Shown: positions 9,071 to 28,576 of the stretch, in pieces
Layout: each line of letters begins with the position of its first letter
Numbering within the stretch: the first letter of the stretch is position 1
NCBI GenBank assembly: GCA_045543955.1
Contig: JAZPYB010000028.1
Coordinates: 46,172 to 110,171 of the forward strand
Direction: 5' to 3'
Origin: Eubacteriales bacterium
GTDB lineage: Bacteria; Bacillota; Clostridia; Oscillospirales; CAG-272
DNA: 64,000 nucleotides
Notes under the pieces: generated by a model
Told to the model about the DNA's origin: nothing
The model's database searches: none
The model's input: the letters and a program-made list of their open reading frames with translations, nothing else
Translations under genes and position numbers: made by a program

Positions 9071-10594
9071 TTATTCTGCTTTTTCTTTCTTTTTTCGTTT
9101 CTTAAATATAAACGAACGGAATAAAACTAAATTCATAACCAAGAAGAAAACTATTAAAATTCCCCAAGTAAGGAACGGATTAACTGCAATTACTCTAGGT
9201 GCGGCTAGCAGCATAATTGGTAAGCCAAAGACAATAGCGGGGAAGTTTTGGTAAACTAAGTTGTCGGATGCTGGTGTTTTAAAGTGTGGGTCCCATTCAC
9301 GAAGGAGAATAATGCCAGTACTTGCCGTTCCGGTTAGCATACCATATGTGGCTAGGAATTGCTCATCCTTGTATTCAGGGAATAGCTTCTTGGAAATAAA
9401 TCTTAGGTAGAAATATGTTGAAACTGCGCCAACAAGACCTAAAATCAGCAAAATGTGCCAGTATTTTCCAAGAGTGTCAGGCTTGATTGCTGCCATACCT
9501 GAAATTATCATAATATCAAAGAAAAATCCAGCTAGGCGCTTCATTAAAAATGTGTTTATATACTCGTGCTTGATAATCTTTTTATTTTTCATAAATCGAA
9601 GTGCAAAGCAAACACCGGTTGCAACCAAAACACCAATTAAGAAGTTAAAGCCATAGATTGTTGAGCTTAGGCTAGGTATTAGCTTGGCAAGAACAAAAAG
9701 AATGCCGTATGCCGCAAAATATGAGCCGAGAATGAATGCAAGCTGCATTGTGATTTTGTCAACACCTGAGGATTCCATAGGTAATTCCTCGGAGGTTTGA
9801 ATTTTGTCTATTGTAACAGTTTCGCCAAAATCGGCGTCCTTCATTTTCTTTTGTGCACGATGGCGAAGAATATTTAGGAAAATAACGCCACCAATAGCGG
9901 CAGAAATAAAGCCAAGAGAAGCAATAGATAGACCAAAGTCTGTACCGTTTACAAGTGCCTCAGCACCCTCTAAATAGTTTTCGCCATTAGGATTATAATT
10001 GTTTATTGTTTGGTATTGCTGACCAAAGTTAAAGGCTTGACCTGTGCCTTGACCAAAGCCAAAGGCAAGAATAACACCAGAATAATTTGTAAGACCACTA
10101 ATAAATAGTGAGCCTATCATAGTAATTGATATACCTATAATGGCTTGAAGTAGGTAGGTCGAAACTGTGGAAACACCGGCATTGAATACCTCAGTGTTGC
10201 GCTTTTTAGAAAGCTTTTCCTTTACGGGCTTAAATGCAGTTGCAATAAAGCCAAGCGCAAGAGAGTGGTAGGTTATAATTTCAAGTAATTGTAAGCCGGT
10301 AAGCGCAACATCGTGGCTGTCAATCAGTCCCTTGTCAACAAGCTCAAGAGTTTCCTTTGACGGTGAACCGAAGAACTTGAGGTCAAAAAGATATTCGCCC
10401 TCGCCGTTTATAGCTGTGTAAATGCAAGAAACAATAAGTATAATTCCACCTGCTAAAACAGAGGTTGGAATTAATGATTTTTTAAGTAATGGAATACGTC
10501 TTTTGAGCATGTTTGCAACTAATAGTGATATAAGCAAAACAGCAACAATACTGACAATACCCCACGCATCAAAGCCCGAGAGTGTCATTTTCAA
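9071..10594 (-). CDS. sodium/glutamate symporter-like (GltS/ESS family) membrane transporter
   Basis: Many TM helices; IPTSVLAG, FGFGQGTGQA and YGMLTGTASTG motifs. Confidence 0.75.
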   Translation of the reverse strand: MKMTLSGFDAWGIVSIVAVLLISLLVANMLKRRIPLLKKSLIPTSVLAGGIILIVSCIYTAINGEGEYLFDLKFFGSPSKETLELVDKGLIDSHDVALTGLQLLEIITYHSLALGFIATAFKPVKEKLSKKRNTEVFNAGVSTVSTYLLQAIIGISITMIGSLFISGLTNYSGVILAFGFGQGTGQAFNFGQQYQTINNYNPNGENYLEGAEALVNGTDFGLSIASLGFISAAIGGVIFLNILRHRAQKKMKDADFGETVTIDKIQTSEELPMESSGVDKITMQLAFILGSYFAAYGILFVLAKLIPSLSSTIYGFNFLIGVLVATGVCFALRFMKNKKIIKHEYINTFLMKRLAGFFFDIMIISGMAAIKPDTLGKYWHILLILGLVGAVSTYFYLRFISKKLFPEYKDEQFLATYGMLTGTASTGIILLREWDPHFKTPASDNLVYQNFPAIVFGLPIMLLAAPRVIAVNPFLTWGILIVFFLVMNLVLFRSFIFKKRKKKEKAE

Positions 10595-11783
10595 TATCTC
10601 CTTTCGCTACGCTTATGCTATGATAATATGTGTTTATATATTTAACCGCGTTAAAGCGTACGCTTCCTTTGATTTGGAAAACCCTTTTGTCGTAATATAA
10701 ATTTAGCTTGTTGCGACCAAGTACCCCAGAGGCAGTAACCATAGAGAAAGGGACAATTTCGCGCCTGTCCTTTAATTCTATTTCAAATCTGTCAGCAAAA
10801 GCACGGAATTTTACATTTTCGCCAAGTAAAATCTTTTTCTTGCAGGGAATAACCTCGCTATAGCTTACAACATCCTCAAACAGAGGAGTGTCATAATATG
10901 GGCTTAAATCAAAAGCACGTATGAATTTAGATTGAGCATCATACCATTCGGTAATGAAATCATAAGGAAACTCGCGATTAACCCCGACGAGCTGCTTAGA
11001 TGGAGTGTACCTAACTGTCAAGCCACAGCTTTTGCAGTGCATTTTATCGCCATTGCTTTCCCATTCGCTGAGCCCACATTCCGGACAGTAGTAAATGACT
11101 CTTTCAAGATATTCAGCACTATTTTTTGAATAATATTTTAGGTCAACCACGCCCTCATTTACAAAGAGCTTATCGCAAATGAGCTTATATAATTCACTAT
11201 CGGTCATATCCTTATATTGGTCGTATTCAATAATCTCGGCAACACCAGACGACATCCTTCCACGTCTTATTTTATCACTCCAACGAGGATGAACGCCAAA
11301 GCCACCACGAATGTGATAAATAGCGATAGGCAATTTTAAGGATTTTGCAAAGGGTGCAATTGTGTCCTTTATATATTCGGTTTTACCACTATATGTGCGG
11401 TTGCCCTCAGGGAATATGGCAATAGAGCCCCCCTCCTTAGCAACACGCTTGCAATCTAAAACAGCCTTGACATCAGTTGCCCCTTTTTTAATTGGAATAG
11501 GCTTAACCAAAAAGCTAATAAGCCAAGAAACAAAGCCGTTTGAAAATAAATCATCATTTGTTACATAATAAAGGTGCTTTTTAAAGGACATACTAACAAA
11601 GAACTGGTCAAATGGAGTTTGATGGTTTGAAATAACCAAGAACTGTCTTTTGTCCTTGAATTTTTTAACCTTTATGTGATATTTGATTTTACAAAGGAGA
11701 CTAATAAATGGATATAGGGTTTTTCTTACAACAGTGTGTCTAAATTTAATCCATTTCTGCTTCTTTTTCTTCTTATTTCCCAT
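10569..11783 (-). CDS. lysophospholipid acyltransferase family protein with C-terminal zinc ribbon
   Basis: NHQTPFD (HX4D), FPEGNR, CPEC...CKSC. Confidence 0.88.
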   Translation of the reverse strand: MGNKKKKKQKWIKFRHTVVRKTLYPFISLLCKIKYHIKVKKFKDKRQFLVISNHQTPFDQFFVSMSFKKHLYYVTNDDLFSNGFVSWLISFLVKPIPIKKGATDVKAVLDCKRVAKEGGSIAIFPEGNRTYSGKTEYIKDTIAPFAKSLKLPIAIYHIRGGFGVHPRWSDKIRRGRMSSGVAEIIEYDQYKDMTDSELYKLICDKLFVNEGVVDLKYYSKNSAEYLERVIYYCPECGLSEWESNGDKMHCKSCGLTVRYTPSKQLVGVNREFPYDFITEWYDAQSKFIRAFDLSPYYDTPLFEDVVSYSEVIPCKKKILLGENVKFRAFADRFEIELKDRREIVPFSMVTASGVLGRNKLNLYYDKRVFQIKGSVRFNAVKYINTYYHSISVAKGDIENDTLGL

Positions 11784-17172: not shown

Positions 17173-17504
17173 CCATTAGTTATTTGCAAACGCGCTTGGG
17201 CAAAGACCGTTATTTATAAAATCATCATTGCAAATTACACAACAAATCCTTGCCTAAAACAAAATTGATTATAATATAACATAAAAACAATTAAATTTCA
17301 ACTGCATTTTTGACTGAATATAATAAAAGTGTTTTCGGAGAAGCATTGAAACAGAGGAAGGGACCGTCTGCGAACTGTGCTATTGGAACGTTGAGAAACG
17401 TGTGGGAGGAGCTTGCTGCTTTGCCACCAGTATTCAAACAGGGAGGTGGGATTTGAGTTGCCCACTAAAGTGTTGGAAGAAAGAGCGTTTAGCCTTTCCT
17501 TTTT

Positions 17505-17801
17505 ACCTCCGGGTTATCGCTTCACGCCACTCCTGTCGCATAGAAAAGTCAGTGCGAACATATCCCGCCTTGTAGTGACCGAATTTTGTTCGCTTTCGCA
17601 ATGCTCGGCGCAAAATTCGACTACTGCGGAACTCACACCCTACCTGCATCTGCCACTGGCAGCGGTAGGGCACGAGCCCCAACGAGCCACGCTCGTCGGA
17701 CTATAACAAAAAATCGCGAGAGTCAAACCCCGAGCACTCATACTAAAAGCAAAAGAAAAAACACACCTCCGACGGGTGTGTTTTTCTTTTGTTTGGGTGT
17801 G
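17505..17801. repeat. ~297-bp tRNA-fMet-derived palindromic repeat, copy 1
   Basis: About 94% identical by hand alignment to 19101-19398; tRNA fragments at both ends, internal hairpins and a terminator-like stem. Confidence 0.92.
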
Positions 17802-17823
17802 GAGGCGGGATGTAAGTTGAACC
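17793..17823. mobile_element. attL-like junction of an older element remnant
   Basis: ttgggtgtg-gaggcgggat-gtaag-ttgaacc equals the tRNA-fMet 3' end (27956-27981) with one mismatch and a 5-bp insertion. Confidence 0.7.
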
Positions 17824-17824
17824 A

Positions 17825-18265
17825 TTATATCTGTTTGTCAGAATATATTTTCTGTAATATTAAGTTTGCATTTTGTTTGTACTCCAATATATCGATAAAT
17901 CCAACTAGTTTTTCCTCTGCATATTTAATAACTATCTTTAGATTATTTCGCTTTATTTCTTTTTCTGTTAAACTATCTTTTTTATCATTTATAATGAATT
18001 CTTTTAAATCTTTTATATTTATTTTAATTATTGACTTCTCGTTTATTCCACTATATTTAAAAAAATTGTTCACTTTAAAAATATAAATGGTTTCTTGATA
18101 AATTGACAAATAAAATCTGTTTTTTTCTTCTACAATTGAAGATGCTAAACTCCCAAAAAATCCACTCCATTTGCAATTTTTTATAAACGATACAACTAAA
18201 TTGAGATTCTCAGCCATTTTGTTTTCCACTAAGTCGTTTCTTAATTTTTCGTCAATTATATTCAT
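17825..18265 (-). CDS. hypothetical protein (AT-rich cargo)
   Basis: 146-aa ORF with AAGGA RBS; no recognisable motif. Confidence 0.65.
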   Translation of the reverse strand: MNIIDEKLRNDLVENKMAENLNLVVSFIKNCKWSGFFGSLASSIVEEKNRFYLSIYQETIYIFKVNNFFKYSGINEKSIIKINIKDLKEFIINDKKDSLTEKEIKRNNLKIVIKYAEEKLVGFIDILEYKQNANLILQKIYSDKQI

Positions 18266-18424
18266 TTATGTTACCAAATCCTTTTTAATATAAAATTTGT
18301 TAGATTATTGTTTTGTTATGAATTTGAAGTTTTATATTATTATATCAACTAATTGTAAAGAAGTCAACAATAATGTATAAATATGAAACCAAAAAACACA
18401 TAATCCAAGTGTTAAAAATAAACA

Positions 18425-18453
18425 TTGACAATATCCCCAAATAGCTATATAAT
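18425..18453 (+). promoter_or_regulatory. sigma-A promoter of TPR gene
   Basis: TTGACA-N17-TATAAT. Confidence 0.7.
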
Positions 18454-18481
18454 ATACTTAATACTTAAAAGGAGATTAAAT

Positions 18482-19030
18482 ATGAATGAAAAAGTAGTTT
18501 CATCTAATTTAGGCGGAGAAGGATATTATTTTGAAAATTTTTCAGAATTTGCTTTGTATGTCAAAGTAAACAAACCTAAAACAGAAGTCGTTTTTTTATC
18601 TGGTGATAATTATAAAGATATGCTTTTATACGGAATTGAACTTTTTGAACAAAAAAAATTTGAAAAAGCAATCGAGATTTTAAAGGAATGTTTAAAGCTA
18701 AATCCAGTAGGGTTGAGCGCTCGTTTTGAATTATCTGAGTGTTATATTTGTATTAATCAATTTGATTTGGCGAAAAGAACGCTCTTGGATATGAAAGAAT
18801 ATTTAGAATTAAATACTCATAAAGCACGATTTTATCGCAGATTAGGATACATTGCAACGGAAGAAAAAGATTATAAAATAGCTTATTGTTGTTATAAGTA
18901 TAGTTTAAATTACGAAAACCATTATACAGTTCTTCAAGAATTAAAGTACATAAAATCAATCAGCAATTCAAATTTTTTATTTGTACCTATAAAAAGCACT
19001 TTGAAAAACAAATCAATACCGTTATTATGA
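18482..19030 (+). CDS. tetratricopeptide repeat protein
   Basis: TPR pattern (G..LF..KKFEKA...LK.CLKLNP; Y.RLG.IA....DY..A..CY..SL); AAGGAG RBS before ATG 18482. Confidence 0.8.
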   Translation: MNEKVVSSNLGGEGYYFENFSEFALYVKVNKPKTEVVFLSGDNYKDMLLYGIELFEQKKFEKAIEILKECLKLNPVGLSARFELSECYICINQFDLAKRTLLDMKEYLELNTHKARFYRRLGYIATEEKDYKIAYCCYKYSLNYENHYTVLQELKYIKSISNSNFLFVPIKSTLKNKSIPLL

Positions 19031-19100
19031 AAAACATTATAGAAATTTATTGGTGTTGTTTGAACATGCAAGGATAATCGTTTCCGACTGTCTGTTAGAG

Positions 19101-19398
19101 ACCTCACGGGTTATCGCTTCGCATCACTCCTGTCGCATAGAAAAGTCAGCGCGAACATATCCCACCTTGTAGTGACCGAATTTTGTTCGCTTTCACAATG
19201 CTCGGCACAAAATTCGACTACTGCGGAGCTCGCACCCTACCTGCATCTGCCGCTGGCAGCGGCAGGGCACGAGCCCCAACGAGCTACACTCGTCGAACTA
19301 TAACAAAAAATCGCGAGAGTTAAACCCCGAGCACCCATACTAAAAGCAAAAGAAAAAACACACCTCCGAAGGGTGTGTTTTTCTTTTGTTTGGGTGCG
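19101..19398. repeat. ~298-bp tRNA-fMet-derived palindromic repeat, copy 2
   Basis: Direct repeat of 17505-17801. Confidence 0.92.
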
Positions 19399-19440
19399 TG
19401 TGTGGTATCTAATTTGAACCACATATGTTTCTTGTTGCTT

Positions 19441-20103
19441 TTAAGTTAACAGATATTTTATCAATTCTTCTATACCGAAAATTATTAGTCCTGAGACAAT
19501 GGCACTCAATATACCGAGAAAGAAACTTTCTTTTTGAAAGTTAAAAGTTTTTGTTGAATTATCATTTCCAACATTACTCATTGAAGCTTCACCATTTTCA
19601 ACTTTTTGTACGTTTCCACCAAAAATGTTATCTCCATTATGAATGGTAGACGGTACATCCTTTTTTTCTTGTTCCTCTGCTTCTGTATATAATTCTTCAA
19701 GTTTCAAACGAATATAGTTGATTAAAGGAAGAACTGAGGTTCTTAATAACTTTTGAATAGAAGCATTAAAATTTTTTTCTGCCCAATAAATTGAATAAGC
19801 ATATGTACCTAATTCTTTATTACTTTCAACCATAAAAGCAAGATGTTTATATAGAATTGCTTTATCCTTGATTTCATCTGCGTCGCTATTTATAGGTCAA
19901 CGATAATTTCCTTCATACAAATCAGGAGCTTCAAGTGCAGCTTGCTTTATTGGTGAAATAATTGAATTTACAAGAGCATTGGTATCTATAAATGTTTTGT
20001 ATGCCAATAGTGTGTTTTCTCTCGTGTCATATTTAGTGTTCATAACGGCACTTGCCAAATCGGTGTGTTTCATTATCACTTTTTTTATTTCAGTTGTTTT
20101 CAT
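19441..20103 (-). pseudogene. 220-codon gene with C-terminal TM helix, interrupted by one in-frame TGA (19897-19899)
   Basis: ORFs 19897-20127 and 19441-19833 share a frame and read ...EGNYR*PINSDADEIKDKAILYKHLAFMVES...; ATGA overlap with the upstream gene. Confidence 0.75.
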
Positions 20104-20555
20104 ATAATATCTCCACAGAAAGGACAATATATTACGATTGACCCAAAGCTTGTTTTAAAGGTTTCGTTACACTTTTTACAAAAATGTTTTGTTTCTACAT
20201 TGGGATGCAAACCATACATTTTAGGTTTTAAATTAGTCCCCTTACTTTTATATTTAATTAGACCTTTTGATTTTTTAGCAACATTTTTCAATTCTTTGTC
20301 TAAATAATCATTGGCGAGATAACTTCTCATATCTGAAATGTATTCGATACACTCTGTTGTATAAAAATTTTGAATACTTGATTGCATATTACAAATAGGA
20401 CAAAATAGGCTGTCATTTTCCTTTTCGCCCTGAAATAAGTTTTTATCTAATCTAAAAACAGCTTTGCATATAGGGCACTCGTATTCAATATAGCCTTCAT
20501 TATCACTTGGTAGTTCGAATGAAAAATCTAATTTTTTTGACATTATTTCCTCCAT
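20100..20555 (-). CDS. double zinc-ribbon protein
   Basis: CPIC, CPIC, CKKC and CPFC motifs. Confidence 0.8.
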   Translation of the reverse strand: MEEIMSKKLDFSFELPSDNEGYIEYECPICKAVFRLDKNLFQGEKENDSLFCPICNMQSSIQNFYTTECIEYISDMRSYLANDYLDKELKNVAKKSKGLIKYKSKGTNLKPKMYGLHPNVETKHFCKKCNETFKTSFGSIVIYCPFCGDII

Positions 20556-20616
20556 ATGATGAATTTATTGAATTATAAAATTAGTAGTAGAAGCAGTAGC
20601 AAGGAATAAACACTTA

Positions 20617-22587
20617 TTACAATTTATTTGTTATTTCTTGTTCATACCATTGATTTGGAGCAAGTGAAGAATTATAAGCTTTTTCAAAAATTTTATATAG
20701 CTGAGTATAATTCAGCTTATTTTGAATTATAGTTTTAATTTCTGTTGTTTGGCAAGGAATAATTTTCATCCCATTGACACAGTTTGTTCCATCAGTAGAA
20801 TAATAAGGCATAAATTTTCTTCCTCTAAAATCTGCAATAACGTTGATATGAAGATAAGTAGTAGCGAAAACACAATAAGCTTCTTCATCGTGAGAAAGCA
20901 AATAATCGCCTAAGTGTCTTGAAACAGGCTCCATTTCCATTCTTCTTTGATTGGTGCTATTAGCAAGTGTAGCTTCAATCAAAAGAGTGTGGGCAGGATA
21001 ATTCTCGGTTGCTTCATACTTATATGTAATATCTTCGTGTCCGCCTGCTGCGTGAGTAATTGGCAAAAGGTCAGAGTCTAACGATAAATTCATATATTCC
21101 AACACCTTACCTTGTCTGCCTGATATTTTATACCAAGCAATAGCCAATACATATTCAAAAATAGTAGGCACATCAGCATTGCTTGTTACCATAGAACGAA
21201 TATCGTTGTCGGCACGATTTTCAAACATTGTCATAAGAGCAACGATGTTTTCATCGGTAAACTTTTCATCAATCATTTTGTTGAGTCGGTCATATCTTTC
21301 CTTATCAACAAATTCTTGAACATCATAAATAGAACGAGCTTTTATGCCATATAGCTCTTCAACCTTATCAATTATTTCATTTTGAGAAATATCGAAGCTT
21401 GGGTTTATATCAGCAAGAGAGCAATCCTTTTCAAGACTATCGCTTTTGCAGAAAGCTAAGTCAAAAAGCTTGTCCTTTGCAATAGAGAAAAAGCAATTTG
21501 GGATGATTCCAAGAGTTACTTTTTCATCTTGAAAAATAACTGTATCAGTAATTTTGAAATATCTTCTGTTTAGGTCTAAGTAATCATCTAACAGGCTCTT
21601 AGCTTTGAACAAATGAAGTAATCTAAAAAATTCTTCCTTAAATGCTTTGTCATTTGTTAATCTAAAGAGCTTAACATCGTTTACAGTAGAAGCACCACCT
21701 TTTTCGATTTTTGAGGTAGAAGGTGTGTTAAATAAATATTGCTTCCAATATGTTTGAGCCTTACCTGATATGCCTTTTACGGAATGTAAAAGGGAAACAG
21801 CTAAATCATTAGTTTGTTTCTTTTTAAAAGCTATCAATGCTTTATACAAAGGAAAATACGGAGCATCATAAGTTCTGCTTTTTCTGTTCATTCCTATTTC
21901 TTGAATGAGGCTTTCATCCACCTTGCGAGCAGATAATAACATATTTCTTGCTTCTTTGTAGTTGTTCATAGAAAGAAGAATGTTTACAATAACATCATCA
22001 ATGTTTTTCTTGCCACATCGAATATCTTTAATGTCTTGTACCATTTGCTTGGTTTTGTCGGCACTTGTTGTTAATGGCAATAAATATGTAAATTCTTCTT
22101 TGCTAAGCTCGCCTAATTCTTGAAGCAAATAAGCAAGAACGATATAAGGACGTGCAACATTATTTTCGTCAAATTCATTATAAAGCTTCGTCATTTGCTT
22201 GAAATAAACAAAACTATCAGCAGGAATTTGAAGCAAATTATTTGCCGAAAAATCAGCTGATGTTGCGATTTTCAAAAGGGCTTCACCGGCTTCGGTTAAT
22301 CTTCTTTCATCCGTGATTAAACCTAAATCAACTAAACCTGATGTTTTCTCGCGAGCATCTTTAGCTTTTCTTGGAGCATCCCTATCTTCAATAAATTCCT
22401 TTTCTTTCAAGAAATTATAATATGCTTTTTGTATATCTTCGTTAGCACTCCATAATTCGTTTTGATATTGTGGTAATTCCCAAAATTCCTTTAACAATTG
22501 CAACTGTAATTCAATTTTTCTGTTAAATTCAGTTGTACGGAAGCTCGTTGTTCCTAACGCCCAACAAAATCTTTTATAAGCAGGCAT
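20617..22587 (-). CDS. AlwI-family type IIS restriction endonuclease
   Basis: N-terminal W.LGTTSFR, AKDAREKTSGLVDLGL; C-terminal D...LIEATL..NQRRMEMEPVSRH; downstream of the MTase. Confidence 0.85.
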   Translation of the reverse strand: MPAYKRFCWALGTTSFRTTEFNRKIELQLQLLKEFWELPQYQNELWSANEDIQKAYYNFLKEKEFIEDRDAPRKAKDAREKTSGLVDLGLITDERRLTEAGEALLKIATSADFSANNLLQIPADSFVYFKQMTKLYNEFDENNVARPYIVLAYLLQELGELSKEEFTYLLPLTTSADKTKQMVQDIKDIRCGKKNIDDVIVNILLSMNNYKEARNMLLSARKVDESLIQEIGMNRKSRTYDAPYFPLYKALIAFKKKQTNDLAVSLLHSVKGISGKAQTYWKQYLFNTPSTSKIEKGGASTVNDVKLFRLTNDKAFKEEFFRLLHLFKAKSLLDDYLDLNRRYFKITDTVIFQDEKVTLGIIPNCFFSIAKDKLFDLAFCKSDSLEKDCSLADINPSFDISQNEIIDKVEELYGIKARSIYDVQEFVDKERYDRLNKMIDEKFTDENIVALMTMFENRADNDIRSMVTSNADVPTIFEYVLAIAWYKISGRQGKVLEYMNLSLDSDLLPITHAAGGHEDITYKYEATENYPAHTLLIEATLANSTNQRRMEMEPVSRHLGDYLLSHDEEAYCVFATTYLHINVIADFRGRKFMPYYSTDGTNCVNGMKIIPCQTTEIKTIIQNKLNYTQLYKIFEKAYNSSLAPNQWYEQEITNKL

Positions 22588-22597
22588 AATAATCTCC

Positions 22598-24739
22598 TTA
22601 ATAGTTTACTATAAGTACCTCATCCGTTTTTGAGGTTTTGTCTTTTACTTGATAATTTGAGTTTGAATAGCTGTAATCAAGATATATCACACGATATTTA
22701 TCACGATTTCTATTTACCCAATCAATTAGAATACTGTTTTCTTTACCTTTTGAACGCAAAACATTTGAAAGAGCAAATCTAATTTCTTTTTCGTTTAGCT
22801 TATCAAGATAAGCCAAAAGCTCTTTTTCTAAGGTTTCATTCCAACCGTCTTGTTCATTGTATGTAGCACAAGTTATCAAATAAGGTGGGTCAGCATATAC
22901 AAATGTTTTTTCATCCCATTCCTCGTTTGGTAATTCACGGAAATCGTAACATTCAAATTTGTAGTCGCCACTCTTTAACCTATCAATGAAAGAAGAAAGC
23001 TTTTCACGCATTTTTTTATTGAAATCACGCTTGCCAGCAGGCAAATTAAATTCGCCTTTTCTGTTGAATCTAATTTGATTGTTGAAAGCATAGACAATCA
23101 ATACATAAAGAGTAATGTAATAATTGTAATCTAATACTTTACAATTGTTGAAATCGTTTCTAAGTTTCAAAAATTTTTCGCTATTGTATGAAGATAAGCC
23201 GTCAGCACTATTGCAACCATATCTTTCATAACCATATTTTTCGGTATTAGAAAGACCATATTTTTCGATGATGTTGTCGATAAGCTCCATTGTTACTTGC
23301 TTATCAAGGTTTTTGAATGTTCCAAAAACGAATTTCAAAAGTGAATTATTATCGTTGAAAATAACACGATTGCAAGGAACATTTATTCCTACGTTTCCAC
23401 CACCACTAAACAAATCAATGAAACAATTTATATCTTGTGGGAAGTGTGGCAAAATTTGAGAAAGCAATTTGAACTTTCCACCTGTATAGTTAAGAGGGGA
23501 TTGTATAAGTTCCTTTTGCTTGCTGTCATAGCACTCACAAACAAAAAGTCTTTCTTCATTATCTTCAATGCTTGATTTTCCTGCACTAAAAGCACGATGC
23601 TTTTCAGAGAACACCTTAACACGACCTTTTTGAGATAAGATTCTCATAATATCATCATCGCTGATTTTAGCATTTGAACGGTCGTTTCCTTTTTCAGCCA
23701 TATTGTTGTAAGAAAGAACAATATATTTTGCTTTGATTTTGGAAATTAAATCTTCAAAAGCCTTGGTGGCAGACGTTGTACAATAATCACTTTTTAGTGC
23801 TGTTCTATCCATTTTAAGAGCAACGCCCTTAACCTCAGGTTTTTCCCAACGAGCAACATTTTCAAGCAAATGATATGCATCGCAATACTGTCTTGAATTG
23901 TATGGGGGGTCGATATACACTAAATCAGCTTCTATTCTTTTTACAAGCTCATTAGCATCTTCATTGTAGCATTGGTTATTTTCGTTATTATCGTTGCTTG
24001 CTAATGGAACACTTAATTCTAAGCTTTTATCAAACTGTGCGTTTTTGATATATGCGTCATAGTGTCCACAAGTATTAGCAATCTTGTCCATAGCATAAAG
24101 AAGCGATGTTATCAAAATAGCTCGTTCTCTTGCGTTGATATTTCCATTAGAATAATTTTCTTCTATATCTTCACGGATAAAGCCTATTTTTCTGCAATCA
24201 GCTAAAGAAAAGAAAGTGTTTGCAAAGTTAATAGACATATAGTTATCTTCTTGTGGAGCAATTGCATTATAATAGCAAATTAAACTCTTTATTTTTTCTT
24301 CATCGTACTTTTCAGCACCAAACCACGCAACATGGCAGATATGGTTAAAGTACAATAAATCATTTGTTATGAGCTTTTTATCAATAAAAGCAGAAGCAAC
24401 AGAGCCGGTGCCTGCAAATATATCGGCAACAGTTGTTATCTCGCTACATTCGTTTTCCACAGTTTCTTTTATGAAAGAAAGAAGTTTGTATTTATTTCCT
24501 AAATATCTACGATTGTTAATAGCAGTTGTTTTATAAGCAGGAACAGGCTCTGGCTCTTTTGCTTGAAACATAGAAGCAATTGTTTCTTTCAAGGAAGAAA
24601 GGGTTTCTTCATCCCAAATATATCTGCCTGTTTCTGTGGTTGGAACTTCTATTAAATTGTTTTTTAGTAAATAATAAAATGTTGAACGACTAAGGTTCAA
24701 TTCTTTTAAAATCTCCGAAGATGTAAAGGTTCTATCCAT
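22598..24739 (-). CDS. fused double-domain Dam/D12-class N6-adenine methyltransferase with N-terminal HTH
   Basis: Two FxGxG motifs (DIFAGTG, DLFSGGG) and two DPPY motifs; N-terminal EILKELNLSRSTFY HTH; AAGGAG RBS before ATG 24739. Confidence 0.92.
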   Translation of the reverse strand: MDRTFTSSEILKELNLSRSTFYYLLKNNLIEVPTTETGRYIWDEETLSSLKETIASMFQAKEPEPVPAYKTTAINNRRYLGNKYKLLSFIKETVENECSEITTVADIFAGTGSVASAFIDKKLITNDLLYFNHICHVAWFGAEKYDEEKIKSLICYYNAIAPQEDNYMSINFANTFFSLADCRKIGFIREDIEENYSNGNINARERAILITSLLYAMDKIANTCGHYDAYIKNAQFDKSLELSVPLASNDNNENNQCYNEDANELVKRIEADLVYIDPPYNSRQYCDAYHLLENVARWEKPEVKGVALKMDRTALKSDYCTTSATKAFEDLISKIKAKYIVLSYNNMAEKGNDRSNAKISDDDIMRILSQKGRVKVFSEKHRAFSAGKSSIEDNEERLFVCECYDSKQKELIQSPLNYTGGKFKLLSQILPHFPQDINCFIDLFSGGGNVGINVPCNRVIFNDNNSLLKFVFGTFKNLDKQVTMELIDNIIEKYGLSNTEKYGYERYGCNSADGLSSYNSEKFLKLRNDFNNCKVLDYNYYITLYVLIVYAFNNQIRFNRKGEFNLPAGKRDFNKKMREKLSSFIDRLKSGDYKFECYDFRELPNEEWDEKTFVYADPPYLITCATYNEQDGWNETLEKELLAYLDKLNEKEIRFALSNVLRSKGKENSILIDWVNRNRDKYRVIYLDYSYSNSNYQVKDKTSKTDEVLIVNY

Positions 24740-24780
24740 AGTTATCTCCTTATGCAACTAAAAATAGCTTTATATTAGAC

Positions 24781-24809
24781 ATTATAACATCATATAGGCA
24801 CATTTTCAA
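24781..24809 (-). promoter_or_regulatory. sigma-A promoter of the M-R operon
   Basis: TTGAAA-N17-TATAAT with TGn on the minus strand. Confidence 0.65.
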
Positions 24810-24894
24810 TCATTTTACGCAAATTTTATATATATTTTTGGATGCACTTTTAAATTAGCATCCTTTTTTATATTTATGAGTAATATTATTGTTT

Positions 24895-24958
24895 TTGGGC
24901 GTGTGCTTGGCTGATACGAGAGCCCTCGCTACGCTCGGGCTGCCAAGCACACGCCCAA
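24895..24958. repeat. long inverted repeat (ttgggcgtgtgcttggc...gccaagcacacgcccaa)
   Basis: 17-bp perfect arms; the left arm recurs near 25180 and 25270. Confidence 0.8.
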
Positions 24959-25296
24959 GACTTGACCTGACAGACAAAGGAAAAAGAAAACAGGCTGAAA
25001 AACTACATAAAACGAATTGAAAACAAAGCCGAAGAAAAGGGCGTTGGCGCTGAGCCGCTTGCCAATCGCCCTTTTTTCTTTCGGCATTTTTTGTTTTTCA
25101 GCACTGTTTTTAGTAGCAAAATTTTCAAATGTGGGAATTTTACCACTAATTACCCCATTTTTTGATTTTAGGCGTGGGATGTGTGCTTGTCTTGAACGAG
25201 AACACAGACAAAACGGTCGTTTGTGGAGCTTTGATACAAAATGATACACTTTGATATTTTCTTGTCGTTGGGCGTGTGCTTGTCTTGATACGAGTA

Positions 25297-25611
25297 TCAA
25301 CCAAAGCATTTTTGAAAATAAAGAATAAGCTCTTTATTTTTGCGTTGCACATACTTTTCCGAGTAGCACAAATAATAGCCAGCATCCTTTTGCGTTAGTC
25401 CCTCAACATAAAGAAACTTATATATTTTCTTTAAGGTTGGATGTGCATTTTCAATGTACTTGTCGTATTTTTCAACAAGAGAAAATAACTTTTCTTGATA
25501 TTCTTTATTCTTCCTATATTCTTCAAGTGTGCTTTCAGGCAAGTTGTGAAGAAATTTTACGGTATATCTTAACTCCTTGCGTATTTCATCCACAGTTTTC
25601 AAAAACATCAC
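25297..25611 (-). CDS. small sigma70 region-4-like / ArpU-RinA-like HTH regulator
   Basis: LYVEGLTQKDAGYYLCYSEKYVQR HTH pattern; GAAAGGGG RBS. Confidence 0.7.
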   Translation of the reverse strand: MMFLKTVDEIRKELRYTVKFLHNLPESTLEEYRKNKEYQEKLFSLVEKYDKYIENAHPTLKKIYKFLYVEGLTQKDAGYYLCYSEKYVQRKNKELILYFQKCFG

Positions 25612-25798
25612 CCCTTTCGTATATTACTTTACAATTTTATTTTTAAAAAGTCAACAAAGTGCTGTCCCAAAAAATCGACACATTGCAAAAACTTTGCAAC
25701 TTTTTTCAAAAGGTGGGGTTTTGACCCTTTTCTTACCTTTACAAATTTTCCACTATCGTGTTAAAATTTAATCAACGACGAATGAAAGGAGGGTGTTT

Positions 25799-25930
25799 TT
25801 GAAAAATGAAATTAAAATTAGTGCAATCGGCGTAGAAAATTTAACAGAGCTTTTGAAAAACGAAAAACAGTTATATTTAAAGCTGTTAGAAACAATTACA
25901 GAGCAAGTAAAAAGCAAGAATAATCATTAA
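25799..25930 (+). CDS. 43-aa hypothetical protein upstream of the recombinase (candidate directionality factor)
   Basis: GAAAGGAGG RBS then TTG; MKNEIKISAIGVENLTELLKNEKQLYLKLLETITEQVKSKNNH. Confidence 0.6.
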   Translation: MKNEIKISAIGVENLTELLKNEKQLYLKLLETITEQVKSKNNH

Positions 25931-26154
25931 GAGGTAAAAATTATGTTTAACACTAAACTAATCGTAATTTGTCTTTCGCCCGGTGGGGTTTAAACGAAAT
26001 TGCCATTTCTGTCAAGGGAAAATATATTGATATAACATAGAATAGTTGTTTTTGTGAGCAATATATTTTTTGATCCCATTGACAGCCCTGTCAATTCCGT
26101 TTTGGGTTTTCCTGTCGAAAGACAAATAAAAATTTAATTAAAGGAGAATTCAAA

Positions 26155-27636
26155 ATGGAAAAGAAAAAGCAATCAAAGGAATTGAAAACAGCAGTTATAT
26201 ATGCTCGTTATTCAAGCGACAATCAAACAGAGCAATCAATTGAAGGGCAACTTCGAGTGTGTCAAGAGTATGCAAAAAGCAATAACATCATAATTCTTGA
26301 TACATACATTGACAGAGCAATGACAGGTAGAAATGATAATCGCCCTGCGTTCCAAAAAATGCTCAAGGACAGCTCAAACGGAAATTGGGACTATGTATTA
26401 GTTTACAAGTTTGACCGATTTTCAAGAAACAAATACGAAACAGCAATTCACAAGAAAACCTTAAAGGATAATGGAGTTAAGCTAATGTCAGCGACTGAAT
26501 ATTTGCCTGATACACCTGAAGCTATCATTATTGAGTCAATGTTTGAAGGATATGCAGAATACTATTCAGTTGAACTTGCTGTTAAAACAAAAAGAGGAAT
26601 GAGAGAATTAAGAATCAAGGGTAACTTTCAAGGTGGCTACGTTCCATTTGGTTACAAGGTTGAAAATAAAAAGCTTGTAATCGACCCTGAAAAAGCAGAA
26701 GCTGTAAAATACATATTTGAAGAATACCTAATGGGTACCGAAATTAAAGACATTATTGCTAACTTAACAGCAAAGGGTATTTACAACAGAGGCAAACCAC
26801 TTGCAAGAACAACCGTATATAATATGCTTAAATTTGAAAAATACACAGGCATTTATCAATACGAGGATGAAATTTACGATAATATGTACCCACAAATAAT
26901 TTCAACAGAGTTATTTGAAAAGGTAAATAGCAAAGCAAAGAAAAACCATTATGGCAGAAAAAGTGAAAAAACCGAATATTTACTACGTGGAAAATTAAAG
27001 TGTGGTTACTGTGGCAGACCAATTAGTGCAGAAACAGGCACAACAAGGTCAGGCAAGGTTAATCACTATTACAAGTGCCTTGGTAGAAGAGAGCATATTT
27101 GCAATAAGCAAACAGTACCACAGGAATTTATAGAAAACTTAGTGGTTGATAGTATAATGGAAGCATTATGTAATAGAAATGTTCTATCACTAATGGTTAA
27201 TAAAATTTTAGAAATGCAAGAATTAAAGAAAGACGACAATTACGACTTAAAATGCTTGTTACAAGAGAAAAAGCAAACAGAAACAGCACTTAATAATCTT
27301 GTAAATGCTCTTGAGAGGGGAGTTTGTTCAAGCACTACAAACAAGAGATTGCACGAGCTTGAAGAAAAGCTTGAAAGCATTGAAAGAGAGATAATCATAG
27401 CAGAGAGTAAGAAAAGCTTTGAAATATCCGAAGAGCAAATTAGAGAATATTTCAAGGATTCAATTAAGCTTGAAGCAAAAGCACTTATAAACAAGTTAAT
27501 TGATAGAATTGAATTGTTTGACGATGAGGTTAAGATTATTTACAACAATCCAATAAACAATGGTCCTGATGAAAATCAGGGCTTTTGTTTTTATACAAGC
27601 AAAATTGAAAAAATGAAAATAAAAATGCTAATCTAA
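26155..27636 (+). CDS. large serine recombinase (integrase)
   Basis: YARYSS catalytic serine, DRFSR, recombinase domain (PFGY), zinc ribbon CGYC...YYKC...C and coiled coil. Confidence 0.95.
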   Translation: MEKKKQSKELKTAVIYARYSSDNQTEQSIEGQLRVCQEYAKSNNIIILDTYIDRAMTGRNDNRPAFQKMLKDSSNGNWDYVLVYKFDRFSRNKYETAIHKKTLKDNGVKLMSATEYLPDTPEAIIIESMFEGYAEYYSVELAVKTKRGMRELRIKGNFQGGYVPFGYKVENKKLVIDPEKAEAVKYIFEEYLMGTEIKDIIANLTAKGIYNRGKPLARTTVYNMLKFEKYTGIYQYEDEIYDNMYPQIISTELFEKVNSKAKKNHYGRKSEKTEYLLRGKLKCGYCGRPISAETGTTRSGKVNHYYKCLGRREHICNKQTVPQEFIENLVVDSIMEALCNRNVLSLMVNKILEMQELKKDDNYDLKCLLQEKKQTETALNNLVNALERGVCSSTTNKRLHELEEKLESIEREIIIAESKKSFEISEEQIREYFKDSIKLEAKALINKLIDRIELFDDEVKIIYNNPINNGPDENQGFCFYTSKIEKMKIKMLI

Positions 27637-27909
27637 CATAAACGAGTAGCATTTATTCCACGGAACAATTGACAAGAGCCTCCTCGGAATGTGTAGTAAG
27701 GCAAAGAGCCAACTGCATAGCCGAGGACGGCTTTTTGTTTGCCTCGGCGAAAGCCTAACACATTCCTACTCTTGTCAATCGTCTTTCGCGGCATAAAAGC
27801 AACTCTATCGCATAAAATCAATGCATTTATGAGCAACCGCAAAAAGAAAAAACAGGGCAAAAAGCCCTGTTCAAAGCGTTTATAAATCATAATCAAAATA
27901 ACAGAAAAA

Positions 27910-27953
27910 AGAAAAAGAACCCAATCCAAACCAAACGGTTCAAATTAGGTTCT
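27910..27953 (-). terminator. terminator of the tRNA operon, supplied by the element end
   Basis: On the minus strand, agaacctaatttgaacc...ggtttggattgggttct followed by T tract. Confidence 0.6.
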
Positions 27954-27956
27954 ACT

Positions 27957-28034
<78 letters not shown>

Positions 28035-28316: not shown

Positions 28317-28392
28317 AGGGGTGTAGTTCAGTTGGTAGAACACCAGTCTCCAAAACTGGGTGTCCAGGGTTCGAGTCCTTGCGCCCCTGCCA
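28317..28392 (+). tRNA. tRNA-Trp (CCA)
   Basis: 76-nt cloverleaf, CCAGT-CTCCAAA-ACTGG, encoded CCA. Confidence 0.95.
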
Positions 28393-28576
28393 AAACAAAA
28401 GGTCGCCATTTGGCGGCCTTTTTGTTTTGAAAGTGGAATTTAGCGCAAGGCTCGAAGGGGAAGCGGTGTTGAATGACAGTCCGGGGGACTGTCAGATCCG
28501 CGGAAAGGCTTTGCCCGCAGGCAAAGGAGTCCTTGCGCCCCTGCCAAAACAAAGGGGCGCCATTTGGCGGCCTTTT
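28373..28576. repeat. duplication of the tRNA-Trp 3' end plus terminator around a palindromic insert
   Basis: gagtccttgcgcccctgccaaaacaaa at 28373 and 28527; inverted T-arm copy at ~28444-28457; tgacagtcc-ggg-ggactgtca palindrome. Confidence 0.85.

Follow-up and report, generated by a model that had tools for sequence, protein, structure and literature searches.

Probable duplication of a conserved, folded flank of the initiator-tRNA gene beside a large serine recombinase island in gut Clostridia

Why would a strongly folded repeat of ~297 bp stand twice near an initiator-tRNA (tRNA-fMet) gene, each time directly ahead of foreign genes? The question is raised by a 64,000-nt stretch of DNA from an Eubacteriales bacterium (assembly GCA_045543955.1, contig JAZPYB010000028.1, positions 46,172 to 110,171), the whole of which we call the window. 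A first-pass annotation made from the letters of this DNA had proposed that the repeat derives from tRNA-fMet and duplicates its 3' half, creating extra bacterial attachment sites (attB) that serine-integrase elements then fill in the manner of a cassette array. The account that we favour, with moderate confidence, differs from this proposal. We regard the repeat as two local copies of a unit, here named S, which constitutes the conserved downstream flank of the initiator-tRNA gene; islands encoding a large serine recombinase (LSR) insert between S and the tRNA, additional sites would stem from duplication of the host flank, and S itself would be kept as a folded element.

The two copies of S lie at 17505-17801 (copy A) and 19101-19398 (copy B). 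Their global alignment, up to 17801, contains 18 substitutions, comprising 17 transitions and one transversion, and a single indel, an extra A that copy B carries in its first segment, X. An ungapped direct repeat of 300 nt (17510-17809 and 19107-19406) forms a two-copy family with 92% identity, and BLAST of the repeat reports 94% identity over positions 1-295. BLAST of the organism's own 1.84-Mb assembly returns just these two full copies, the 2 further matches being the terminator aligned with its own reverse. With a GC content of ~50-54%, the repeat stands out from neighbouring DNA at 21-35%, and copy A folds with z = -6.2 on the plus strand and z = -4.4 on the minus strand, none of 200 shuffles being as stable on either strand. 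Both copies start with ACCTC(A)CGGGTTAT, which is window sequence 27987-27999, where the anticodon-stem 3' strand and the variable region of tRNA-fMet are read in reverse complement; the agreement with the reverse-complemented tRNA is 13/13 in copy A and 14/14 in copy B. The string TTGGGTGYG is found at 17793, 19390 and 27956, and in either copy the terminator stem gives a score on the plus as well as the minus strand. The parts of this region, and the tRNA to which they relate, are as follows.

17441..17466: older pseudo-fragment of the tRNA-fMet 3' end (GGGAGGTGGGATTTGA) joined to GTTGCCC, from reading of the sequence
17505..17517: X of copy A, the 5' strand of closing helix P1, 13/13 against reverse-complemented tRNA positions 31-43
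17518..17677: insert of copy A in the place of the pseudo-anticodon loop, with the P2 hairpin, an extra hairpin and the core R (helices P3 and P4)
17678..17745: fold-back part of copy A, with reverse-complement pseudo-tRNA 47-59, a 3-nt turn and sense pseudo-tRNA from the D-stem onward
17756..17797: bidirectional intrinsic terminator of copy A with its T-rich tail, the B-type left arm of an attachment site
19101..19394: S copy B, with X carrying the extra A, insert with R core, fold-back part and terminator
27957..28034, minus strand: intact tRNA-fMet (CAU), called by ARAGORN and Rfam

In the minimum-free-energy fold, X of copy A pairs with 17721-17730. The fold-back part of copy A agrees with the reverse-complemented tRNA at 11/13 positions and with the sense tRNA at 33/42 (positions 23-66), its sense portion comprising P5, X', a degenerate T arm and a degenerate acceptor. 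A covariance model of the folded region, R1, scores 123.9 bits on copy A (17505-17713) and 100.8 bits on copy B (19101-19310). Upstream, the junction GGGATTTGAGTTGCCC is also found ahead of S in two other genomes (G012 and G001, loci L007 and L010). The first-pass description of the repeat, from its two mostly transition-separated copies and their start in tRNA-fMet to the inverted degenerate tRNA copy, the terminator-like stem and the ttgggtgYg core, was accurate on each of these points.

The design of the unit becomes clear when each S is aligned to the tRNA-fMet gene of its own genome. In many relatives the left flank repeats the tRNA's final 42-43 nt as their reverse complement, as against 13-14 nt in the window, and in six loci (L045, L060, L138, L156, L178 and L196) it is identical to the genome's own tRNA at 42/42 or 43/43 positions. 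The homology stops at the anticodon loop and restarts beyond the insert, where the next 13 nt agree at 11-12 positions; loop nucleotides 32-34 are the sole tRNA positions missing across the insert, which stands in their place. After a 3-nt turn the same tRNA follows in the sense direction from the D-stem on, with matches of 42/52 over positions 23-77 (L178), 29/29 (L122) and 24/24 over positions 55-78 (L048), and this pseudo-tRNA is succeeded on the plus strand by the bidirectional terminator and then by the real tRNA on the opposite strand. By these alignments, S is a fold-back pseudo-tRNA-fMet with a structured core of ~110-150 nt, R, in the place of the anticodon loop, completed by a bidirectional terminator. 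The two tRNA-derived arms pair together as helices P1 and P5, and R contributes P3 and P4. About half of the instances (48/110, by a rough regular expression) have a different middle part at the same position, and S of the window also carries an extra hairpin like that of this second type. A derivation from tRNA-fMet, as first proposed for the whole repeat, consequently describes the arms and not the central ~110-150 nt, R belonging to a structured repeat family that occurs also away from tRNA-fMet.

Is S tied to the island, or to the tRNA gene? BLAST over 101 related genomes yielded partial matches in 18, the window's genome among them, and 12 of 21 scanned loci have a tRNA-Met gene at the site of the match, convergent with it, in the tRNA-Leu, tRNA-Met, tRNA-Trp setting seen in the window. 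A motif scan covering 7/64 parts of a species-genome collection returned at least 124 stretches, ~90 of them GC-rich chance matches; the 33 used belong to records whose titles name Clostridia, Acutalibacteraceae, Faecousia, Oscillospiraceae, Eubacteriales or Bacillota metagenome-assembled genomes (MAGs). A second motif scan, of metagenome contigs, gave 60 stretches. We classed 110 S instances by regular expressions, near-identical metagenome strains being counted. On the 3' side, S is followed by an intact tRNA-fMet in at least 53/110 (plus L089 and L211, recognized by eye), by foreign DNA straight after the terminator in 38/110, by a tRNA 3' half that another element interrupts at the anticodon loop in 7/110, by a pseudo 3' half leading into a further S in 3/110 and by another tRNA-end fragment in 3/110, with 6/110 cut by the locus end. 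On the 5' side there is a full 42-43-nt pseudo 3' half in 35/110, a pseudo 3' half from the T loop on in 7/110, the 13-nt X only in 15/110, another 3'-end fragment in 16/110 and no such sequence in 27/110; the locus end cuts 10/110. Loci hold from 1 to 3 S units, with tandem units in G100, L188 and L218. In L156 and L090 the pseudo 3' half is joined to the P arm of an element, L090 having a single S between two such elements. Judged by this sequence context, what normally lies downstream of tRNA-fMet in a group of gut Clostridia is a conserved S, which is made neither by nor for an integrase.

A phage origin of S was considered and rejected, as blastn of S against a phage collection gave no match and the one full S among the 6 IMG/VR loci that contain the motif stands on the host side of a prophage. 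That IMG/VR contig (L165, 2700-3200) merits mention on its own account: a prophage with small terminase and scaffold genes follows the S terminator directly, with 15 nt of the tRNA end retained at the junction, and the arrangement as read shows phages as well as islands using the site beside S.

Covariation in the helices of S is strong. Model R1 was built from 12 sequences, among which 20/38 pairs show compensatory changes; in a larger set of 72 model matches (58 distinct sequences), 25/38 pairs change on both sides. Across the 58 distinct sequences, 95.5% of cells are paired, compared with 31-49% when partners are slid by 1-3 columns. In a shuffle control 0/500 replicates reach any observed measure; the sequences are related, so that this control overstates significance, a weakness from which the slid control is free. 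By pair type, the cells comprise 1,977 Watson-Crick, 37 G.U and 39 A.C, and an RNA would usually show more wobble pairs. Copy B taken alone tends to the minus strand, 8/10 of its paired-site substitutions giving A.C on the plus strand; by helix, P5 tends toward the minus strand and P2-P4 slightly toward the plus strand. Rfam 15 at the gathering threshold finds only tRNAs in the window, the best sub-threshold match over the repeats, at permissive E-values, is 26.5 bits for a family with a threshold of 55.8, and S and R loci from 12 other sources yield just tRNAs plus one neighbouring Gut-1. ARAGORN likewise reports no tmRNA and no additional tRNA. At the level of titles and abstracts we found no description of S in the literature, and this covarying element is apparently undescribed. 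The pairing pattern suggests that S is most likely kept as a folded element, of RNA or of DNA.

Two further observations belong to this search. The position of the insert at 34/35 and its terminal G suggested a group I intron in the anticodon loop, which was discarded in the absence of any RF00028 match at E <=10 on either strand and of a 5' exon. The Gut-1 (RF01706) match, at L045 1727-1801 (+) in a Clostridia MAG, scores 58.8 bits against a gathering threshold of 50 and lies just past the pseudo 3' half beside S; a weaker one occurs at L007 82-156. We know of no function for Gut-1.

Between copy B and tRNA-fMet, the sole copy of this gene found in a search of the assembly, lies an island, E3, whose ends define the attachment sites in question.

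19397..27960: island E3, 8,566 bp from crossover to crossover
19395..19420: attL of E3, with predicted crossover TG at 19395-19396 and a P' arm carrying ATTTGAACC at half-site positions 16-24 (19412-19420)
27937..27981: attR of E3, with P arm 27937-27960 (GGTTCAAAT at 16-24), TG at 27961-27962 and, as B' arm, the tRNA 3' end
26155-27636, plus strand: LSR, preceded in E3 by small open reading frames (ORFs)

The recombinase has the domains Resolvase (PF00239, 1.3e-29), Recombinase (PF07508, 2.3e-17) and Zn_ribbon_recom (PF13408, 5.4e-11). The attL of E3 forms a perfect 12-nt inverted repeat with 27937-27948, and the phage-type site (attP) rebuilt from the left of attR and the right of attL spans ~50 bp, with perfect 12-nt outer inverted repeats GGTTCAAATTAG ... 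CTAATTTGAACC that are 26 nt apart and 36 nt between the inner GGTTCAA/TTGAACC heptamers. The crossover would be the TG of GGG-TG-CG in the CCA end of the tRNA, a position placed by symmetry and not measured. In both P arms ATTTGAACC occupies positions 16-24, whereas in the tRNA (B') arm it occupies 11-19 (27973-27981), a shift of 5 bp. A study of Listeria and other serine integrases gives the same geometry, with the distal motif at 16-24 in attP, at 11-19 in attB and a 5-bp shift (PMC3783163). The attL and attR of E3 have just TTGGGTGCG in common, and in G012, G045 and G016 (loci L007, L008 and L006) we find empty sites in which the S terminator runs directly into TTGGGTGCGGAGG, the tRNA 3' end, compatible with conservative exchange without target duplication. 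G109 holds a recombinase, 61% identical, that is arranged alike; its flank aligns with that of E3 up to TTGG, beyond which comes the 3' end of tRNA-Gln. The alignment ending at TTGG fixes the boundary of E3, and the location at tRNA-Gln means that the recombinase family uses the CCA/T-arm end of different tRNAs. The compared junctions indicate that this LSR family crosses at the TG, with a predicted site made up of the last ~20 nt of the tRNA as the strong half and the T-rich tail of the S terminator as the weak half. LSR homologues occur in 72/201 family genomes, with up to 7 per genome.

What follows copy A is a block of two genes.

17798..17823: putative attL of a second element, E2, with predicted crossover TG at 17798-17799 and a P'-type arm carrying AGTTGAACC at half-site 16-24
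17825..19030: E2 cargo, orf146 (17825-18265, minus strand) and a TPR protein (~18483-19030, plus strand)

From GGG-TG after copy A the sequence runs TGGAGGCGGGAT-GTAAG-TTGAACCA, and this flank agrees with the E3 P' arm at 16/25 nt, among them the motif and the 5-nt spacer. We read it as the putative attL of E2, a related but decayed element. The block, with a GC content of 21-28%, stops on the right at GACCTCACGGGTTAT, which is X of copy B, and in G038 the same two genes stand in the same order beside S; neither gene has a PADLOC or PHROG match. The proposal that each copy of S is followed by an attL-type arm and foreign genes is borne out, both arms being of attP type with the motif at 16-24. 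The companion proposal, that the two-gene block sits inside a split copy of the tRNA, fares less well: ttgggtgtggaggcgggat has attP spacing and is more plausibly a P' arm that a decayed element would have left behind, although the homologue in G038 has attB-like spacing.

These observations can be ordered into a history. The S unit and the adjoining tRNA 3' half would have been duplicated in tandem, likely by unequal recombination across the 13-14-nt direct repeat X; E2 would then have entered the duplicated site and E3 the real tRNA site, and E2 would later have lost its right, recombinase-bearing end. A serine recombinase has no means of duplicating the tRNA half, and some other cause must be sought for that step. 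The S terminator tail, in this account of a duplicated host flank, would just happen to supply the weak half of a serine-integrase site. The extra landing sites proposed at the outset are accordingly visible in other genomes, where a P arm abuts a duplicated 3' half (L156 and L090), and are a matter of inference in the window; a serine-integrase island, E3, does lie between copy B and the tRNA, and the E2 block lacks a recombinase.

Several points weigh against the account of a host flank duplicated and then invaded. The tandem stage preceding E2 and E3 is not observed for this genome. Neither the E2 block nor its homologue in G038 has a recombinase; the homologue adjoins a tRNA-like arm in which the motif shows attB-like spacing, and E2 may have entered through a T-loop-targeting recombinase or by some other rearrangement. 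The terminator half of the proposed site matches the motif at 4/9 positions by our own count. The X strand is absent in 27/110 S instances, so that P1 is not universal, and all such fractions carry the regular-expression classing and strain redundancy stated above. Finally, with G.U and A.C equally rare, no strand can be read from the alignment, nor any clear mark of an RNA.

That last point bears on the first of the alternatives, in which S is a host gene for a non-coding RNA: plus-strand transcription would run toward the tRNA and stop at the shared terminator, and the RNA, antisense to the initiator tRNA at its 5' end, would act on tRNA-fMet or its precursor. Such a gene would account for the strong covariation, the high GC content amid AT-rich DNA, the plus-strand fold at z = -6.2, the plus-strand T-tract retained in every S terminator seen and a left arm still identical to each genome's own tRNA. 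It sits poorly with the lack of a conserved promoter upstream, where copies A and B differ in their flanks, with G.U pairs that are no more frequent than A.C, with the 8/10 paired-site substitutions of copy B that yield A.C on the plus strand, with R copies of G194 that lie in both orientations relative to neighbouring genes, and with the missing Rfam family match. We consider this alternative unlikely, if worth keeping in view.

The core R invites a different explanation, given its distribution. A model search of 151 family genomes found R in 47, with 17 matches in G196, 16 in G194, 11 in G212, 10 in G211 and 8 each in G186 and G057; in the genome of the window R is confined to the two S copies. 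The dispersed matches align over P3 and P4, without the arms specific to tRNA-fMet. In G211 and G186, R forms tandem arrays 5' of a tRNA-Pro gene and of two tRNA-Ser genes, each array unit closing with a 17-21-nt copy of the 5' end of that tRNA; in the Ser arrays the sequences flanking R are adjacent in the tRNA, which places R within the D-loop of a pseudo-copy. In G194, R is found in the gyrB-recF interval and immediately downstream of dnaA and of serS, in either orientation, with short closing helices of varying sequence and adjacent terminator-like hairpins. R was not matched downstream of dnaA in two congeners, G101 and G259, the spacers being too diverged to align or to fix the ends of R. 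Copies of the repeat were expected at tRNAs with matching fragments; R also occurs between core genes, independently of tRNAs. R has the many dispersed intergenic copies of a REP- or MITE-like repeat; an associated transposase was not found, as the Y1 transposase (PF01797) is lacking in the R-rich genomes G194, G211 and G212 and the IS110 domain (PF01548) is above cut-off in 0/5 R-rich genomes. A possible CC duplication was noted by eye at R copies, and no terminal inverted repeats were seen. By its distribution, R behaves as a structured intergenic repeat. As to its surroundings, dispersed R copies lie in larger mosaics of other repeated hairpin modules, such as TTCGCGC-GGA-GCGCGAA and CCAGCTTTTTGAAAAAAGCTGG (L240-L242 of G194, L245 of G196), and one R copy of G194 holds an insertion of ~100 nt (L240, about 10430-10690 and 17370-17600).

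From this distribution one may tentatively picture R as an undescribed gene-less mobile element that inserts in hairpin loops (chiefly the D loop and the anticodon loop of a tRNA gene or of a copy of one), multiplies to as many as 17 per genome and builds tRNA-fragment arrays beside live tRNA genes. Islands with serine or tyrosine integrases would afterwards land in these arrays, and the copy at the sole initiator-tRNA gene would be kept across several families for a host role that its fold has acquired. We hold this picture to be speculative and doubtful at present.

A further alternative treats the S unit (tRNA 3' half, terminator and S) as a mini integrative element, non-autonomous, which a tyrosine integrase with its crossover in the anticodon loop would mobilize in trans; tandems would result from repeated integration. 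In relatives, 42-43-nt exact direct repeats of the tRNA 3' half flank the unit, and direct repeats of this kind are the usual footprint of islands in tRNA genes (PMC9897764). Other elements do occupy the anticodon loop of tRNA-fMet in 7/110 instances, and unit number varies from 1 to 3. Yet the 18 ORFs scanned over 12-32 kb include no tyrosine integrase, and tRNA homology resumes past R at 11-12/13 positions, so that R is inserted inside a longer pseudo-tRNA and is not the end of an element; the same position of S across several families moreover suggests vertical descent. On balance we find a mini element improbable.

A tRNA-derived duplication whose very role is to make extra attB sites, as an integron-like cassette array, is very improbable in spite of the occupied tRNA 3' halves beside S in L156 and L090, the several classes of attL-type arm after S terminators and the 38/110 terminators followed by 'foreign' DNA, for S is present and conserved where no island sits, R is not tRNA-derived and is also found near other tRNAs and in the gaps between core genes, serine recombination makes no second copy of its target, the separator is ~300 bp long against 57-141 nt for the attC sites between integron cassettes, and neither a tyrosine or integron integrase (the same 18 ORFs, 12-32 kb) nor attC-like sites (Rfam) were found.

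Comparison with known systems helps to place the preferred reading, that of a duplicated host flank entered by LSR islands. E3 resembles the LSR systems of Listeria A118/LI, phiC31 and Bxb1 in its domain set, in a ~50-bp attP with inverted outer motifs, in the 9-bp motif at 16-24 in attP and 11-19 in attB, in an apparent lack of target duplication and in an integrase gene beside one element end. It differs from them in targeting the extreme 3' (CCA) end of tRNA genes, in that close relatives use other tRNAs (fMet here, Gln in G109), apparently via common T-arm sequence, and in a conserved, structured non-coding region of ~300 nt between the integrase gene and the P arm. In SCCmec composite islands at rlmH, and in the accretion of cis-mobilizable elements (CIME) and integrative and conjugative elements (ICE) in streptococci, elements stand head to tail at one site, some without a recombinase, separated by copies of the site. 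The window has the same row of elements at one site, some without a recombinase, but its separator is a structured module of ~300 bp with a tRNA fragment, not a short direct repeat, and the extra site seems to stem from duplication of the host flank.

Partial tRNA genes reportedly occur at the borders of integrated elements, an observation said to go back to Williams in 2002. The account of van der Gulik et al. 2023 (PMC9897764) describes such border fragments as well. The S of relatives is similar in having an exact 42-43-nt copy of the tRNA 3' end near the intact gene; it differs in that the copy belongs to a fold-back pseudo-tRNA with a structured insert, encloses only ~250 bp and is conserved across families. 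Structured intergenic repeats are themselves a known class that includes REP/BIME, ERIC, BOX and Correia. R is like these in being GC-rich, strongly folding and multi-copy in some genomes, and in its intergenic position near terminators, in either orientation and in mosaics with other hairpin modules. With its branched fold and ~110-150 nt it exceeds REP in size. It differs further from the class in lying inside the loops of tRNA pseudo-copies and in showing no terminal inverted repeats, and the R-rich genomes yielded neither a Y1 (RAYT/IS200) nor an IS110 gene in association with it.

The remaining features of the islands, called with Pfam, PADLOC and PHROGs in E3, are the following.

19441-19833 and 19897-20127, minus strand: PDC-M14B-like, two ORFs that match the middle and first parts of PDC-M14B, respectively
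20100-20555, minus strand: PDC-M14A (5.9e-26)
20617-22587, minus strand: AlwI-type restriction enzyme
22598-24757, minus strand: double D12 methyltransferase
27637..27936: S', a structured non-coding region between the LSR stop codon and the P arm

The PDC-M14A and PDC-M14B-like ORFs (19441-20555) form a candidate defence pair in which the B gene may be split. S' folds with z = -7.5 (0/100 shuffles as stable) and aligns, with non-triplet indels, to the equivalent region of the G109 island (L229, G109:C139, 1165-1500); it may be an element-borne structured RNA or regulatory region, and the 98-aa ORF on its minus strand (27633-27929) is probably spurious. The genome carries a second LSR gene (G000:C17:40084-41460) that is 40% identical to that of the window. 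In E2, the TPR gene has a perfect sigma-70 consensus promoter at 18425-18453 (TTGACA, 17-nt spacer, TATAAT) and probably starts at ATG 18483 after AAGGAG, not at the listed TTG. A 50-nt direct repeat, 96% identical between 28373-28422 and 28527-28576, consists of the tRNA-Trp 3' end and its terminator and flanks a GC-rich insert of 104 nt (z = -3.2). It gives no match to model R1 and is the second small duplication of a tRNA end in the cluster that holds tRNA-fMet.

For annotation, the locus carries the caveat that its tRNA-like pieces are not simple island scars. It places a strongly covarying element beside the only initiator-tRNA gene found in the assembly, and abundant gut Clostridia carry that element repeatedly. 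On the reading proposed here, a host flank that becomes duplicated can create additional sites for defence islands. The E3 family, for its part, would constitute a clean natural example of serine-integrase site logic, with retargeting between tRNAs via common T-arm sequence, and this logic may prove useful for predicting the attachment sites of many uncharacterised gut recombinases.

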